DNA of 17,932 nucleotides from Candidatus Latescibacterota bacterium (GTDB lineage: Bacteria; Latescibacterota; UBA2968; UBA8231), in contig CBDBIJ010000087.1 of the NCBI GenBank assembly GCA_965205655.1, positions 1 to 17,932 of the forward strand, written 5' to 3'. Positions within the stretch are counted from its first letter, which is position 1; every line of letters begins with the position of its first letter. Position numbers and translations under genes: made by a program. The notes below the pieces were generated by a model that saw only the letters and a program-made list of their open reading frames with translations, was not told the origin of the DNA and searched no databases. Positions 5,805-17,932 of the stretch are shown here, in pieces.

Positions 5805-6446
5805 ACGCGATCGGGGCTCCTACCTCAGAAGCAGGAGCTTGCGAGACAGACTGCCGGTTCGACCTTCGAGCCGGGCGACGTAGACCCCGCTGCCCATCTC
5901 CCTGCCGACGTCGTCGAGGCTGTCCCAGCCGACTTCGCCATATCCGGCGCTTCCCGGCCGCAGCAATGAGGTTCGCACCGGCTGACCGAGCAGGTTGTAG
6001 ATGGACAGTGATGCGTCTTCGAGCCCGGTGGGCACGTGAAAAGAGATGATGGTGGCGGCGTTGAAGGGGTTGGGCCGGTTCGGCCACAAAACGAAATCCC
6101 CCGGCAGCGTCCCGACCTCCCAGCCCTCCTCAACAGCCGTCATGCGCTGCAGCACGACCGGCGGCCCCGACTCATCAAGACGTTCAATGACGGCGGCGGC
6201 GGGCAGGATGCGGTCGTCCGGGGGCGGCAGTTCGGCGAAGGGGCGGGAGCGAATCTCGCGGCCATCGGCGAGAGTGACGACGAGGATGAGCTTTTCATAA
6301 TCGGGGTTCTCGGGGTCGAAATCGATGCACTCGAAGTGCGCGTCCGCCCGGCGCAGATTGGACACCTCGGGGAGGTCCGGGTTGAATGAGAATGCCGGAT
6401 CGATCGTCATCTCCTCGGCGGACAGGGTCGTGTAAAGTCGCGTCAT

Positions 6447-6486
6447 GTAGGGATGTCGATCGAAGAGTAGGGATGTCGATCGAAGA
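6447..6486. repeat. Perfect 20-bp tandem duplication (GTAGGGATGTCGATCGAAGA x2) causing a frameshift
   Basis: 6447-6466 equals 6467-6486. Removing one copy gives LFDRHPY-MTRLYTTLS in a single frame. Confidence 0.95.
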
Positions 6487-7007
6487 GCTTCTGGGACTCG
6501 CGGAGGGGCGTAACGACAACGGCGTCCAGATCTCCGATGAGCCCATCGAGGTCGAAGACGAGGCCCTCGAGGTAGTCGTCGTAGGCGCGCATGTTGTTGT
6601 AAAAGGATTGCTCGGCAATGGCGAGCAGCCGGCCCTCCTCGGCGGCCTCATCGTAGTCCTCTCTGTCGCCGCGGAACACCACCTCCAGCACTCCCTCCTC
6701 GAGCACGGACCGCCGGGCATCGGTATGCGCCGCCGCAGCAGGGCCTGCATCTGCCCGTCTCTGGGGAATCCCTGAAACAGGAGCTCGTCGATGACATCGA
6801 CGGGATGCTCCTGCCGGCCGAGGGCATCGAGATCGAAGCGGTCTTCCCAGTAGAAGGCGCGCTTTCATGATGGAGCTGGCGCCGGCGTAATCGGTGACGA
6901 AGGCCTGGCCGCCGGCCTCGTCCGCAGCGCGAGTGACCACGTCGGGGTAGTTGAGGCCGAAATTGAACCAGTCGATGACGGCCTCGTTGATGTGGACGTG
7001 GAGATAG

Positions 7008-8383
7008 GAGCTATAATCAGAAGGTGTGGAAATAGACAGACGGCGATCCTACCCTTCCTTTGTAATTAGCCATCACAAACGCCGGGGCTATCCCGGCAGG
7101 AAGAGGAGAATCGCCATGGCACAACCTAAGCCGAGCACGACGGAAATGTCCATGCCCACGTTCGAAACGCTGGAAGAGTGGACACGCTCGCAGATTCAGT
7201 CGCTGATGCAGTCGGTTCTGGATGAAGAAGTCACCCATGCGCTGGGACGGTCACGGTACGAGCGACAGGCACCGTTGGACGCAGCCGGCGGCTACCGCAA
7301 TGGGTACGGGAAGCGGCGGCGACTGTCCTTGACCTCGGGCACGATCGAGGTGAAACGCCCTCGGGTGCGGGGTCTGGAAGAGCGATTTGAGAGTGCGGTA
7401 CTGCCGCTGTTCGCCCGGCGCACCCAAGAAATAGGTCAGCTGCTGCCAGAGCTTTACCTGCACGGTTTGTCTCAGGGCGACTTCGAGCTGGCGCTGCGCG
7501 GCCTGCTGGGCAAGGGAGCGCCTTTGTCGGCGTCCTCGATCGCTCGTTTGCGTGAGAAGTGGATCGTCGAATACAACGCCTGGCGCAGCCGACGACTGGA
7601 TGACCGCGAGCTCGTCTACGCCTGGGCGGACGGGATCTACGTCAAAGCCGGTCTCGAGAAGCAAAAAGCCGCTCTCCTGGTGGTCATCGGCGCGATGAGC
7701 GATGGGCGCAAAGAAGTCCTGACGATTGTCCCGGGCTATCGCGAATCGACAGAGTCGTGGGCGGGCGTACTGCGCGATCTGCGTGACCGCGGACTGAGCG
7801 TGGCGAAGTTGTTGGTGGCGGATGGGCACCTGGGTATCTGGGCGGCCCTGGCAGAGGTCTGGCCGGAGACGGCTGAACAGCGATGCTGGAATCACCGCAT
7901 CCTGAACGTGCTGGATAAGCTGCCAAAACGCGTGCAGGTCGAAGGGCGGCACCTGCTGACACAGATCCCGTACGCGCCGACCCGTCAGGAAGCGACGAAA
8001 CGTCGCGATCAATTCGCCAAACGGTTTCGCCGCGAGTGTCCAGACGCCGTCGATATCCTTGAGCGCGATTGGGACCGTATGGTGACATTCTACGACTTTC
8101 CCGAGGCCCACTGGCAACACCTGCGCACCACCAACGTCGTCGAAAGTCCCTTCGCTTCGGTACGGTTGCGAACCAATGCGGCCAAACGATACAGGAAGGT
8201 GGCCAATGCCACCGCCCTCATTTGGCGGGTACTGATGGTGGCCGAGAAACGATTCCGGCGACTCAATGCACCGCATCTCATGGCTGACGTCTACGCCGGG
8301 GAGTGCTACGAAAACGGATCACCCATCGCGCAAAGGAAGAAGATCGCCGCCTGAGTCGTTTACACACCATTTGACCCTAGCTC
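7008..8383 (+). mobile_element. Complete IS256-family insertion sequence (1376 bp)
   Basis: Imperfect terminal IRs GAGCTATAATCAGAAGGTGTGGAAA and (reverse complement) GAGCTAGGGTCAAATGGTGTGTAAA. The 9-bp direct repeat TGGAGATAG flanks it at 6999-7007 and 8384-8392. Confidence 0.95.
7116..8354 (+). CDS. IS256-family (mutator-like) DDE transposase
   Basis: RBS GAGGAG before ATG 7116. Motifs YRNGY, YAWADGIY, RESTESW, LVADG, QRCWNH, LRTTNVVESPF. Confidence 0.95.
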   Translation: MAQPKPSTTEMSMPTFETLEEWTRSQIQSLMQSVLDEEVTHALGRSRYERQAPLDAAGGYRNGYGKRRRLSLTSGTIEVKRPRVRGLEERFESAVLPLFARRTQEIGQLLPELYLHGLSQGDFELALRGLLGKGAPLSASSIARLREKWIVEYNAWRSRRLDDRELVYAWADGIYVKAGLEKQKAALLVVIGAMSDGRKEVLTIVPGYRESTESWAGVLRDLRDRGLSVAKLLVADGHLGIWAALAEVWPETAEQRCWNHRILNVLDKLPKRVQVEGRHLLTQIPYAPTRQEATKRRDQFAKRFRRECPDAVDILERDWDRMVTFYDFPEAHWQHLRTTNVVESPFASVRLRTNAAKRYRKVANATALIWRVLMVAEKRFRRLNAPHLMADVYAGECYENGSPIAQRKKIAA

Positions 8384-9134
8384 TGGAGATAGTTCTTCGC
8401 CCTCTCTTCACCGAGAATCCAGACGAGGACACCCAGGTCCGGCTGGGTGGCCACCGCTGTCAGCTGGATCGGGATCATCGGCTCCACTGAGGGGTACTCG
8501 AGCGCGATGGGCTGGAGATCGCCCACGTCGCGGTCGGGAGCCAGCTTCAGGGCCAGAAAGAGAAAGTCGCTCTCCACGTACGGCATCAGCAGCTCGACGC
8601 CCAGGTCACCGAGCTCGTAGCCGTTTTCCTCCAGCCATTCGACGATGGCGCCGGCATCCTCGGAAGCGATGACGGCGGTCTGGTAGGGGCCGACCCGTCC
8701 TTGAGAAACGACATCCACATCGCGCCTGGTCGCGTCGTCGGCCGCCTCGGCGGTGGCGAATACGGGCGGGCCGAAGCCGCAATCGGGATCCTCACGCCAG
8801 TCGAGGACGAAGAAGGGCTGGGTGGCGAACTGGAGCTGACGAAAGAGCTCGTTGTGGCTGACCCCCAGCTTCGGCACGGCGGGGACCGGGAGGACCCAGG
8901 CGAAGTCGGCAGCCGTTCCGGTATACTGGATCTGGACGTGAGTGGTCACCGTCTCGCCGTTGGCGACGAAGAGGATTTGCTCGCTCACCTGGTTCATCGG
9001 AAAGGAGGAGCAGAAGAAACCGCCGCAGGCCCAGGAGGGGCTCGCCGCCGCGAGCGCGAGCGCCGAGGAGACGACGATGGCAGCGGCGCGAGGCGTGTCG
9101 TAGCGTGGGCTCATGAGTATCTCCATTGGATCAA

Positions 9135-12979: not shown

Positions 12980-14017
12980 ATGAGTCATCTCCACCACAGA
13001 GTCCTCACAGTGTGCACGCTATTGGCGTGGAGTCTCGGCAATGGGGGCTCGGGAGCCGATCCGAGCATCGATCTGACGGAGGACTGGCCGCAATGGCGCG
13101 GCCCGAAGGAGGTCTGGAGGCGATCAATAGGGGAGGGCTTTTCCGGTTTATCGATTGCGAGTTCGCGGGTGTACACGATGTACGCCACCGAATCGAGCGA
13201 ATTCGTAGTGAGTCTCAACGCCGCCGACGGCAGTGAAGTCTGGAAGAGCCGCAGCGGGTCCAAGTTCATGCAGACATACGGAAACGGACCGCGGTGTACG
13301 CCCACCGTCGACGGGGGCCGCGTCTACGCTCTGGGAGCGAACGGTGAGCTGCTGGCTCTGGAGGCCGCCTCCGGGCGCACGATCTGGCAGCACAATCTGC
13401 GCACGGAGTTTGGAAGAAAGCTGCCTGCCTTCGGGTTCACGGCGTCGCCGCTCATGTCATTATCGCCGAGCGGCCAGCTGTACTGGCGCTATGAATGACC
13501 GACCGAATTCGGCCAACATCCGGCGACGCCGGTGTTCATCGCCCCCGATCGCGTCTTCATTTCCTCCGGTTACGGCATGGGGGGCGCAGTGTTGCAGATG
13601 GAGCTTGCCGAAACCGGGCTCGGGGTGAGCGAAGTGTGGTTCAACAAGGAGATGAAGAATCACATCAGCACATCGGTGTATCACGAGGGAGCCATCTATG
13701 GCTTCGACGATGCGATATTCAAGTGCATTGATGCCGAGACTGGCGATGAGCGATGGAAGACCCGGGGCTACGGGAAAGGTACGCTCATCATGGCGGACGG
13801 CCATCTGATCGTGTTGGGTGACGCGGGTAAGCTCGCCATCGCGGAGGCGAATCCCGCCGCTCACGTGGAGGTGGCCAGCGCCCAGGTGCTGAGCGACCAG
13901 TGCTGGACGGCGCCCAGTCTCGCGCACGGGCGGCTGTATCTCCGCAATATGGTGGAGATCGTCTGCTTGGATCTCGCGATAAAGACGCAGTCGGCATCGT
14001 GCGAAACGCGGGGGTAG
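12980..14017 (+). pseudogene. Secreted PQQ-like/BamB-like beta-propeller protein with an in-frame TGA and apparent internal deletions
   Basis: DWPQWRGP, GPRCTPTVDGGRVYALG, VFISSGYG, CIDAETGDERWK, WTAPSLAHGRLYLRN. ORFs 12980-13498 and 13532-14017 share a frame and are separated by TGA 13496-13498 (YWRYE*P, where W is expected). Segments appear missing after WRGP and after ASPL. Confidence 0.8.
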
Positions 14018-14554: not shown

Positions 14555-14617
14555 GGGGAAGGCGCAAAGCGACAGCTGCCAGAAGAGCTAGGCTTGCCTG
14601 GTTTCACTAGTGCTCTG

Positions 14618-15678
14618 TTAAAGAGTCGGCATTGAGTTTTGGACTTTGGTCAGCTTGGAGTTGTCCGTGTTCTTGTTTCGCCATCTCAGGTACTCCTGGA
14701 TGCGCTGGCCGACTTCTCGATGATCGTTGGGATCGCTGTTTTTGATGACGAAATAATGGGCTGCCGTGAGGTGACATTCGAGCCGATTCATCCATGACGC
14801 GTTGGTGGCGGTGAAGACCGGCGAGACCTGGTTTCGTCTGCACCACTGCAGGATCGGCGGTGTCTTGTGCGTCGACAGATTGTCCATGACGACGTAGATC
14901 CGTTTCGCCTTGGGATAGCGCAGCCGAATGGCCTTGAGAAAATCGAGTACGACCGATGCGTGCTTCTTTGGTTTGTGATGCATCCACAGGATGTCCTCAT
15001 GGACGTTATAGGCTCCGAAGAAATAGCTGACGCCGCCGTGGCGGCTGTAGGTTGCCCGATGCCGGACCGGGCGCTTCTGCGGGGCCCAGGAAGCGCCGGC
15101 ATGCGGCTTGATCTGGACCGGTCCCAGTTCGTCGAAGCAGACTACGACCGTGCCTTTCGGCGCCCGCTTGTAGAGTCGGTTGATGCGTTTTTTTTAGAGG
15201 CAAACTCCGGGTCCTTGGATTCCTTCCAGGTGCGCGTCCGTTGATAGGTCACCTTATGCTGATCCAGGATTTTCCCGATGGTCACATGCGAGACCTCAGG
15301 AATCATCTGCCGTCCCACCAGGCAGTCGGTCAGCTTGCGCAACGACCACTGATTGAACGGCTGACCGAACGCACGGGGAGGCATCTTGGCGATTTCCACC
15401 ACCACGGATTCGTCTTCCGGCGTCAATTTCGAAGGACGCCCCGGACGTGCCCGCGTGCGCAACGCCGTCAATCCCCCTTCGTTGTATTGGCGAATCAACT
15501 GGCGAACGTACTCCTCGTGCAGATGCAGCGTATCCGAAATCTCTTGGACCCGCATTCCCTGGACGCTGAACGAGATCAACTGCCCACGGCGCATCTGCAC
15601 GGCGCTGCGAGGCCGCTTCAGCCATCGCACCAGTTCCTTCGACTCCGCCACGTTCGGTGAACGAGCATGAAGACACAT
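14618..15678 (-). CDS. IS630 transposase expressed by a -1 frameshift at an A8 run (about 353 aa)
   Basis: AGGAGG RBS and ATG 15678. The HTH part (..RPGRP..WSLRKL..TRTWKESKDPEFASKK) joins at A8 (15188-15195) to KRINRLY..VVCFDELGP..VVMDNLSTHK..NASWMNRLECH (DDE), ending at TAA 14618. Confidence 0.9.
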
Positions 15679-15714
15679 AGCTTGACCCTCCTGAAGAATT
15701 CGCCATATATCTCC

Positions 15715-15743
15715 ATGATACCACGACTTACGACAAAGTACAA
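15715..15743 (-). promoter_or_regulatory. Putative sigma70-type promoter of the IS630 transposase
   Basis: Minus strand TTGTAC-17bp-TATCAT with an extended -10 TG, 37 bp upstream of the start codon. Confidence 0.55.
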
Positions 15744-15764
15744 GCTCCATTTCTTAACGGAGAA

Positions 15765-17932
15765 CTAGCGGATCAGCTTTCGAATCCTCGCTTCCGACTC
15801 GTGGGACCAACCGCTGAGTATGTCAACGACGAGGCCCTCACCGTCGACGATGAAAGAGAGTGGAACAAAGATCTGGTCACCGGCGAAGAGCTGTTCGAAA
15901 CCGCTCTCGTCGGAGATGAAGTTCGGATAGGTGATGCCGGCTCGATCCAGGAATCGAGGTACCCGATCCCGGGCCGCGCCGGTGTCGAGACTGATGCCGA
16001 TCAGGTCGACGCCCGACGCGCCGAGCTCCTGGTACAGCTTCTCCAACTCCGGCATCTCCTGGCGGCACGGCACGCACCAGGTGGCCCAGAGGTTTACCAG
16101 GTAGCTGCGGCCAAGTTGGCGGATGCGCTCGAAGTCGGTCTGCGTTCCCTCCATATCGACAAGCGGAACAGAGGGAAACGGGTCTCCCCGGCCGGGCCGC
16201 ACCGACTGAAGAACGACGGCGCTGGCAGGCGCAGGATCGGGCAGTGAGAAGCGCTGTTCCTGCAGGAACTCGGGACTCGATGCGCTCTCTACAAGTTTGA
16301 TCGAAGATGACGTAAGTGCGAGGGGAGATTTCGCATCCTCACTCTGAAGACGTGTCTCCCCGCCCGCCGGCCACCTCACCGTTATCCACTCCACTCTGTC
16401 GTCCTCAGCGAGTCCGAACAGGAGTCGCGGGTCGCTCTGCGAGACGAAGCCGCTGCCGCCAGCTTTGATCTGAGTTTGCACGCCGCGAGAGGTTTTGACG
16501 CGGACGATCGCGCCGTAGGCGTCCCGACCGCTCTGGATCCCTTCGAGGGTCACGCGGAGAAATTTCCTGGCCTGGCCGACATTATTGCGAAAGAGGTGAT
16601 GGACCTGGCCCTGGAGAGAGGTGAGAAAGATGTCGGAGTCGCCGTCGTTGTCGAAATCGGCGTAGGCGGCGCCGCGGCCGTCCGTCACCGCGTCGAGTCC
16701 GGAGAGTCCGGAGATGTCGACGAATCGCTCGCCCCGGTCGTTGAGGTAGAGCTTGTCGCGCTCGAAGCCGCTGAACGAGAATCCCTGCTCGAACAGCTTC
16801 ATCATATGGTTGGTCTGGTACTGCTGATTGCCGGCCTCCTCGAGTGCTACTGACGACGCCAGCACGTGGCGCCAGAACAGGCTTCAGGTGTCCTTCAGGG
16901 ATTTGCCCGAGACGAAACCGTTGGGGGTGTGTATGTCCTGCCAGCCGTCGTTGTCGAAGTCGACGAAGCCACCGCCCCAGGCCCAGCCGGCGGCAAAGGA
17001 GCCGAGGTCGGCGCTCACTTGCTGATACGTCCCGCCACCGAGATTGCGAAACAGCGTGTTGCCGGCGGCGAGCTTGTCGAGGACGCGGGTCTCGTCAAGA
17101 TGACTGGTTTCATCGGGAAACAGTCGCTTGATGATGCGCTTACCCGCGGTAGAGGACATGTTGGTGACGTGGATGTCGAGATGGCCGTCGTTGTCGAAGT
17201 CTCCCAGCGCTACACCCATGCCGTTGCCGGGGTCGAGCAGGCCGAGGGCTTCAGCTGCGTCGATGAAACGGTTGCCCTCATTCAGGAAGACCGCGTTTTC
17301 GCCGAAATCGTTAGCCACGTACAGGTCGAGCAAGTGGTCATCGTTCAGGTCACCGAAATGCGCGGCGTAGGACCACCGGCTGTCGGCGACGCCCCATTGC
17401 CGCGCCCGCTCCAGAAAGGTGCCGTTTCCCTGGTTGACGAGCAGCAGGTTCGGCGTGCCATTGGTGGCCCGCGACCAGGAGTTCGGCATGATGACGCCAT
17501 ACCGATTGTATGAGGCCACGTAGATATCCGAGAATCCGTCGCGATTGATGTCGGCACTCACGGCGCTGAACCCCTGAGCGAGCTGGTCGACACCCGCCTG
17601 GATGGAGACGTCGAGAAACTCGAGGACTCCGTCGGGAACGAGGCGGTTCTCGAACAGCAGCTGATGACCCGTGGAAGCGAGGAACAGATCGGCGTCGCCG
17701 TCGTTGTCAAAATCCACGAAGAGGGGACCCGAAGCGTTGGGGGTGATCCTGACGCCGGCGGATTCACCCCGGTCGCGAAACGTGCCGTCGCCCTCGTTGA
17801 CATACAGAAAGTTGCCGCCATGACCGGTTGTGAAAGCGTCGAGAAGGCCATCGCCGTCGACATCACTGACGGCAACTCCGTGGGCGATAAAGCTCGGATT
17901 GTCCGGGGTGCCGAAGCGGGCCGCGTCGTGAT
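15765..17932 (-). CDS. FG-GAP/CRTAC1-like repeat + ASPIC/UnbV + TlpA-like thioredoxin fusion protein, 5'-partial, with one in-frame TGA (candidate selenocysteine)
   Basis: The frame is open from the window edge. It carries repeated DxDxDG loops (DVDGDG, DFDNDGD, DINRDG), then NGFVSGKSLKDT-TGA-SLFWRHV, SFSGFERDKLYLN, ASPIC/UnbV motifs (RDAYGAIVRV, GSGFVSQSDPRLLFGL, VRWPAG) and thioredoxin VNLWATWCVPCRQEMPEL. ORFs 16884-17717 and 15765-16865 are in the same frame. Confidence 0.88.
16850..16886 (-). other. In-frame UGA plus candidate bacterial SECIS hairpin
   Basis: mRNA: UGA agcCUGuucu GGCGCCA cgugc UGGCGUC guCAG. The 7-bp stem starts 11 nt after UGA. The 5-nt loop starts at +18 with G at position 2. 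A possible lower stem is CUG/CAG. Confidence 0.55.

Follow-up and report, generated by a model that had tools for sequence, protein, structure and literature searches.

We describe a gene from a Candidatus Latescibacterota bacterium in which a single in-frame UGA most probably encodes selenocysteine (Sec). We put the probability at about 93% that this is one gene whose UGA is read as Sec by SelB and tRNA-Sec through a bSECIS element lying within the ORF. The initial annotation had placed a Sec in the propeller region of the product, and this placement is supported by the conservation of the codon, by covariation in the hairpin that follows it and by the co-occurrence of the codon with the Sec machinery; the insertion of selenium itself would follow from this reading. 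The family is widespread and uncatalogued, and its members are split by gene callers.

An in-frame UGA in a propeller-thioredoxin fusion gene

The window is the whole stretch of DNA that was analysed, 17,932 nt, and corresponds to the entire contig C87 of an assembly (GCA_965205655.1) with a size of 4.0 Mb and a completeness of 84%. The gene occupies one end of the window, on the minus strand, with the following features.

15765..17930, minus strand: read-through ORF, 721 visible codons, translated through one internal TGA
16578..17930, minus strand: FG-GAP (DxDxDG) beta-propeller, CRTAC1-like, about residues 1-451; Pfam PF13517/PF01839; model pLDDT 93.8; 9etn_A Z 42.9
16755..16925, minus strand: predicted insertion that carries the Sec and follows a DxDxDG strand pair; it spans about residues 336-392 and forms two helices in the model; no phmmer alignment to CRTAC1
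16884..16886, minus strand: in-frame TGA, probable Sec349, motif D-T-U-S-x-F-W-R; first residue of the predicted helix 349-360
16855..16873, minus strand: bSECIS-type hairpin GGCGCCA-CGUGC-UGGCGUC; 5-nt loop at 16866..16862 with G at loop position 2
16341..16520, minus strand: ASPIC/UnbV domain, residues 471-530; PF07593, E 1.2e-14
15771..16187, minus strand: TlpA/ResA-like thioredoxin domain, residues ~582-720, with WCVPC (C619, C622); profile and structure matches

The translation passes through the TGA in the context KSLKDT-U-SLFWRHV and terminates at a TAG (15765-15767). As first described, the two ORF halves share one frame across this codon, and the remainder of the roughly 720 codons is intact. 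Because the window is the entire contig, the 5' portion of the gene is missing and the frame is open at its 5' end. Judged from P0050, a 95%-identical protein, the absent part would amount to about 200 codons beyond the contig end; the rest of the assembly was searched for the N-terminal part of the gene and it was not found.

The Pfam redoxin match in the C-terminal domain covers residues 582-702, and the CxxC stands in the context WATWCVPC. The whole protein misses the TlpA and ResA equivalog cut-offs (77.7 against 230 bits and 64.9 against 170 bits, respectively), indicating that this is a fused domain and not an orthologue. The N-termini of P0050 and L026 contain a hydrophobic stretch that we took by eye as a signal peptide, and the product is therefore probably exported. 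The full product would be ~925 residues long, comprising a signal peptide, an N-terminal domain, the FG-GAP propeller with its calcium motifs, the ASPIC/UnbV domain and the TlpA-like domain. In the ESM Atlas, the N-terminal domain of P0050 matched unnamed clusters only.

The initial annotation had made its reading depend on support for the TGA from sequencing reads. The spanning contigs of runs X1 (15742-16970) and X6 (16780-16994) show 0 differences from the window; these runs come from two studies, one of which may be the window's own source, and on this evidence the TGA is not an assembly error.

Neighbouring elements and other host selenoproteins

The gene's stop is abutted by a mobile element, which lies outside the selenoprotein gene.

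14607..15768, minus strand: IS630-type element with HTH and DDE_3 ORFs; CTAG at both ends by eye

The repeat finder did not report the ends of this element. The TAG stop of the selenoprotein gene falls within its right-hand CTAG, and in run X1 the depth over the element is ~15x that of the selenoprotein gene, as for a multicopy element.

Three other genes in the window had been described as pseudogenes, of which two were examined. A DUF2330 gene (8377-9126, minus strand, with the remainder at 6443-6940) is apparently split by an IS256/Mutator transposase gene (7026-8354, plus strand) located between the two parts. The PQQ_2 propeller gene (12980-14017, plus strand) contains an in-frame TGA (13496-13498). 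Two paralogue matches on contig C113 have Trp at the aligned position, which makes this TGA a true nonsense change with which the Sec codon can be contrasted inside one window.

A genome-wide scan of the host for a UGA followed by a hairpin, which is over-permissive, yielded three further likely selenoproteins, all with a UxxC motif: a UGSC-family-like protein (C141:213-1913, minus strand, GHUSTC), a SelL/peroxiredoxin-like protein (C137:5429-5992, minus strand, GPWUPKC) and a ResA-like protein with a T9SS-type C-terminal tail (C55:1432-2370, minus strand, GYSUPYC). These candidates score under their best family cut-offs, except for the T9SS-type tail domain.

The UGA codon is conserved

A set of 40 relatives includes seven intact copies in six genomes at 63-68% identity. 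In the six loci of this group that were inspected, and also in relatives of ~31% identity, the TGA falls in one and the same column. We then considered a metagenome DNA pattern that left the Sec codon free and is biased to the canonical subfamily; it gave at least 119 matches, and among those listed 105 carry TGA (104 clear family members and L279), while the other 14 have different codons and are chance matches outside the family.

Within the host phylum (168 genomes searched, 50 matched), one TGA was found in 52 of the 55 matches, and within Acidobacteriota (251 genomes searched, 47 matched, the phylum being taken from the label of G168) in 49 of the 60, the same-column position being confirmed on the loci that were fetched. 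TGA forms thus occur in 48/168 host-phylum genomes and 37/251 sampled Acidobacteriota. Neither TAA nor TAG was found at the site in any of these 55 and 60 matches, whereas the true terminators of the family genes use all three stop codons.

Protein databases contain the family largely in truncated form, in that 102 of the best 120 database proteins terminate exactly before the TGA codon. The closest lineage-named proteins among these 120, P0033 and P0073, are labelled Ca. Latescibacteria. A scan with generic repeat peptides recovered just 2 close members among 78 loci, and viral contigs gave 0 matches to the pattern and one weak, unrelated match. One copy (L028/L142, G011:C9) retains both the TGA and the hairpin and has several frameshifts.

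The hairpin downstream of the UGA is under selection

The hairpin begins at the 11th base past the UGA, with 17 nt between the UGA and the loop, and its position and the G at the second loop base are as described in the initial annotation. That annotation had also cautioned that hairpins arise easily at this GC content. Taken alone, the window hairpin is unexceptional and rises above chance only in comparisons: its folding z-scores against shuffled sequences are -0.64 (42 nt) and -1.80 (26 nt), neither of which is significant for the single sequence. An Rfam scan of 15000-17932 returned no SECIS family and two weak matches under the gathering score.

For the comparisons, the bSECIS rules of PMC13188914 were re-implemented with ViennaRNA, in place of bSECISearch, as a loop of 3-9 nt, a G in the first two loop positions, a spacing of 16-37 nt and an MFE <= -7.5. 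The rule holds at 113 of the 114 unique TGA sites, compared with 386 of 1947 in-frame control positions, and at all of 30 additional loci. In the covariation test that had been suggested at the outset, which used 97 aligned sites, the pair 18-28 shows compensatory change (UA 57, CG 33, GU 4, UG 1); its score was equalled in 0 of 500 shuffles and slid controls scored lower, with this being the single pair that varies on both sides and the sequences being kin. Moreover, the third base of codon +8 is G at 99/99 sites, against a background of 37-43%.

A comparison at constant protein sequence is possible in the sister clade, where the identical peptide SFFWRQVV occurs in TGA genes and in stop-free genes. 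All six stem pairs are retained in 6/6 TGA genes, while two to four are retained in 5/5 stop-free genes, among 20 fetched loci of which nine lacked the motif match and were unscored. A loose hairpin rule is also satisfied by two of the five stop-free homologues. Taken together, these comparisons indicate that the hairpin is under RNA-level selection and that it decays in stop-free homologues.

The Sec machinery accompanies the UGA codon

The host genome encodes a tRNA-Sec (70 bits against a cut-off of 47) together with selA, selB and selD, so that the search for selA/selB/selC/selD proposed with the initial annotation finds all four, with selD frameshifted in the assembly. The selD gene (G000:C45:11474-12420, L295) has its own UGA (CGUAAK), followed by a hairpin (GAGUCC-GGUC-GGACUC). 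It is spread over three frames by two frameshifts at homopolymer runs, which are probably assembly errors.

Among genomes of the host phylum, selA is present in 47 of the 48 that bear the TGA form, against a background of 131/168. In Acidobacteriota it is present in 35/37 TGA-bearing genomes, compared with a background of 195/251 and with 6/10 of the genomes that have only stop-free forms; leaving out the unpublished G218 and G315, the values are 34/36 for TGA-bearing and 5/9 for only stop-free genomes. All of these counts include kin and hence are not independent. The three TGA genomes without selA all have tRNA-Sec and two of them have selB, so Sec machinery was found in all 85 TGA-bearing genomes. 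The two genomes tested that have stop-free copies only, G265 and G330, are without selA, selB and tRNA-Sec. In a single case (L326:5324-10340, G191:C1), a single ORF of 156 codons separates the family gene from selA, which follows it downstream in the same orientation.

Replacement and probable repeated loss of Sec

We examined which residues replace Sec in homologues that lack the stop codon, noting that protein searches over-represent such forms. In the 18 stop-free full-length close homologues, the Sec column contains C in four, S in three, D and A in two each, and R, V, L, E, T, Q and N once each. In a sister clade that bears TPR domains, 114 of the 120 matches listed are stop-free, with S in 59, A in 29, N in 19, G in 7 and Cys in none, and the remaining six are the C-terminal halves of split genes. 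S, A, N, G, D, V, L, E, T, Q and R are therefore all accepted at this column, and such tolerance speaks against a catalytic residue that the protein cannot do without. A conserved TGA alternating with Cys had been named as the pattern to look for; the TGA is conserved, but the alternation with Cys is weak (4/18 and 0/114).

In a quick tree of an 83-row subsample, whose root is not established, the stop-free forms are nested within the TGA genes at several well-supported positions, suggesting that Sec is ancestral in the family and was lost repeatedly.

The presence of Sec is associated with the state of the thioredoxin domain. The CxxC is intact in 74/74 TGA genes with at least 300 downstream codons, whereas of the 106 proteins that have S, A, N or G at the Sec column and in which a redoxin domain can be detected, two have it intact, 61 have one Cys and 43 have neither. 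In the sister clade, the decay of the CxxC thus accompanies the loss of Sec, and this may reflect one or few events. The proposal of the initial annotation that Sec is recycled by the fused WCVPC motif gains correlative support from this co-decay; the association is not universal. Four close homologues (P0004, P0006, P0007 and P0013) retain the CxxC without Sec or Cys, and two TGA subfamilies (L030/L031; and L136, L163-L166, L169-L172) end ~210-235 codons past the TGA without a thioredoxin domain.

Of these, L030 and L031 belong to a distant subfamily with the motif DG-U-[SA]-C-[VI]-W, in which a Cys lies two residues past Sec (UxC). In addition, L323, which has the TGA, a CxxC tail and the sequence SVLWRHVVASG, resembles the Cys proteins P0005 and P0008, both without a thioredoxin tail, and the comparison raises the possibility of a Sec-to-Cys switch with domain loss.

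Predicted structure and possible function

An AlphaFold2 model with Cys in place of Sec was obtained with a pLDDT of 93.8 and a pTM of 0.90. In this model, residue 349 opens a helix (349-360) within a two-helix insertion that follows a DxDxDG strand pair. The nearest solved structure is murine CRTAC1 (9etn_A; Z 42.9, rmsd 2.3 over 438 aligned residues; Foldseek E 8e-30). The conserved residues include N207-D208, N257-M258-x-S260, R265, W353, R354, E390 and R391. From the propeller topology, we assume that the Sec insertion is placed near these residues, on the face opposite the DxDxDG/calcium loops. The N-terminal end of a helix is a typical position for reactive thiolates. The USxFW sequence may resemble the MsrA motif GCFW, a likeness on which no conclusion here depends. 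In 29 TGA rows the CxxC pair are the only conserved cysteines, and the propeller therefore offers Sec no resolving Cys.

We lean slightly towards the view that the product is a redox enzyme, periplasmic or exported, and that the thioredoxin domain fused to it recycles its lone Sec. This reading draws on the missing resolving Cys, the co-occurrence of the CxxC with the TGA, a DsbD_TM gene in the host (likewise present in 10 of 14 control genomes) and the signal-like N-termini. In the proposed mechanism, the lone selenolate would reduce or attack an extracytoplasmic substrate on the propeller face, such as a peroxide, a sulfoxide or a protein disulfide. The oxidized Sec would then be re-reduced by the fused CxxC, itself fed by a DsbD/CcdA-type membrane protein, and the overall logic would be that of a 1-Cys redox enzyme with its thioredoxin built into the same chain; both the substrate and the Sec-CxxC contact are putative. 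On a broader view, the chances seem evenly balanced that this ancestrally Sec-containing family is an unrecognised class of periplasmic selenoenzymes, with Sec on a helical cap recycled by the TlpA domain, and that losses to non-thiol residues along with the CxxC produced non-redox paralogues.

Among the nine loci scanned (54 of 100 ORFs), no conserved neighbour partner was found. Of the two copies in G013 (L130 and L131), one lies near a heavy-metal P-type ATPase and the other faces an RND efflux set (AcrB/CusB/OEP) tail to tail.

The main rival to the redox relay accepts that Sec is genuine and assigns it a different role, as a binder of soft metals or ligands (Cu, Hg, Ag, As) or as a redox switch, on a propeller that serves as an adhesin or scaffold, with the thioredoxin domain only keeping Sec reduced. 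Many homologues without Sec or Cys still retain the surrounding motif, the title of the closest structure (CRTAC1) does not name an enzyme, and both G013 copies have heavy-metal export genes nearby, all of which would fit such a role. On the other hand, heavy-metal neighbours are missing at the other seven of the nine scanned loci, the predicted placement of Sec at the N-terminus of a helix speaks for a reactive residue, and the co-decay of the CxxC fits turnover. We therefore regard a metal-binding or switch role as possible but the less likely of the two.

Alternative readings of the UGA

It is very improbable that the UGA is decoded through reassignment or leaky readthrough, giving Trp, Cys or Ser in place of Sec. 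Ser, Ala and Cys are present at this column in homologues, but Trp is absent from all of the 18 and 114 stop-free proteins, and the hairpin conforms to the bSECIS model. UGA is also an ordinary stop codon in the host and in fact its commonest (1169 of 1927 long ORFs), indicating that the code is not reassigned, and the sole TCA-anticodon tRNA called in the host is tRNA-Sec. A tRNA-Ser(act) call made by ARAGORN in the host appears to be false.

We consider it slightly more improbable still that there are two genes, a propeller fragment that ends at the TGA and a downstream gene that starts from a GTG at 16865, with the hairpin as a by-product or a coupling signal. Databases do annotate the split form, and a stop codon as common in the host as TGA is in keeping with it; nevertheless, the site is never TAA or TAG, the break falls inside one predicted propeller, single-chain full-length homologues exist and the TGA tracks the Sec machinery. 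Finally, although the PQQ_2 gene has a real TGG-to-TGA nonsense change, the region is IS-rich with two elements in the window and the assembly contains frameshifts, a pseudogene or sequencing error as the cause of the TGA has a negligible chance and is refuted by conservation, with the same TGA in more than 100 independent loci down to ~30% identity and unchanged in the contigs of two studies.

Comparison with catalogues and known systems

The initial annotation did not recognise this as a characterised selenoprotein family, and the catalogues agree with one qualification. In the available text of a 2026 review (PMC13188914), Table 1, with 119 families, has no row naming FG-GAP, ASPIC/UnbV, CRTAC1 or VCBS. 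FG-GAP/ASPIC-type terms were not found in the accessible portions of deep-Sep (PMC12013277, its four supplements included), nor were the family terms in those of BSepDB (PMC13326102, including one supplement of ~4 million characters) or in the main text of SelCysML (PMC13745706). NCBIfam 20.0 has no model above cut-off for the window protein; the selenoprotein models NF041054 (46 bits against a cut-off of 300) and NF040769 (19 bits against 120) match the thioredoxin domain only. The qualification is a supplementary table from 2016 (PMC4807772, S9 Table), whose accessible part contains four selenoprotein candidates with FG-GAP and ASPIC-UnbV domains. Each is divided into two genes in IMG, a SECIS is called for three of the four, and the homologous residue is given as G, not C. 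ASPIC and FG-GAP have 0 occurrences in the main text of that paper as available, and the four are listed as candidates only. Compared by domain names, they very probably belong to the family of the window protein.

The decoding proposed here is standard; the new features are the fold in which the Sec lies and how few of the homologues have Cys. According to the authors of deep-Sep, in the portion of their paper at hand, selenoproteins that have no Cys homologues may escape their method (PMC12013277); since the homologues here are mostly without Cys, the family marks a blind spot of current searches. If our reading is correct, it would add a selenoprotein class overlooked by searches for Sec/Cys pairs. 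In the entries seen, bacterial members of this propeller family are named by domains only; the Sec marks a candidate reactive site on them, and it would provide an active site for the bacterial FG-GAP/ASPIC-UnbV superfamily.

In its decoding signals, the window gene is similar to the SelB/bSECIS selenoprotein genes set out in the available text of PMC13188914, sharing the in-frame UGA, the 17-nt spacing, the 5-nt loop and the G at loop position 2; its hairpin is also like the bSECIS model there in the 6-8 bp stem and an energy below -7.5, and the host has selA/selB/selC/selD. It differs from those genes in its motif DTUSxFWR, which lacks a partner Cys, and in that only a minority of its homologues have Cys.

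CRTAC1 (9etn) and bacterial FG-GAP and UnbV_ASPIC proteins share the propeller and ASPIC/UnbV fold of the window protein. CRTAC1, however, gives no phmmer alignment to the Sec-bearing region 259-410; the CxxC domain is extra in the window protein and the N-terminal domain is extra in its relatives. The C-terminal domain belongs with the TlpA/ResA/DsbE group, matching TlpA (1jfu, E 2.6e-16) and ResA, while the window protein remains below all NCBIfam cut-offs. In contrast to the WAxxUGC and UGC-TlpA selenoproteins, the Sec of the window protein lies outside the thioredoxin motif. In Trx-Msr fusions such as Neisseria PilB, the fused domain acts as the reductant for its partner domain. The partner in the window protein is a propeller and not an Msr, and we propose that the two systems share the logic of a fused reductant.
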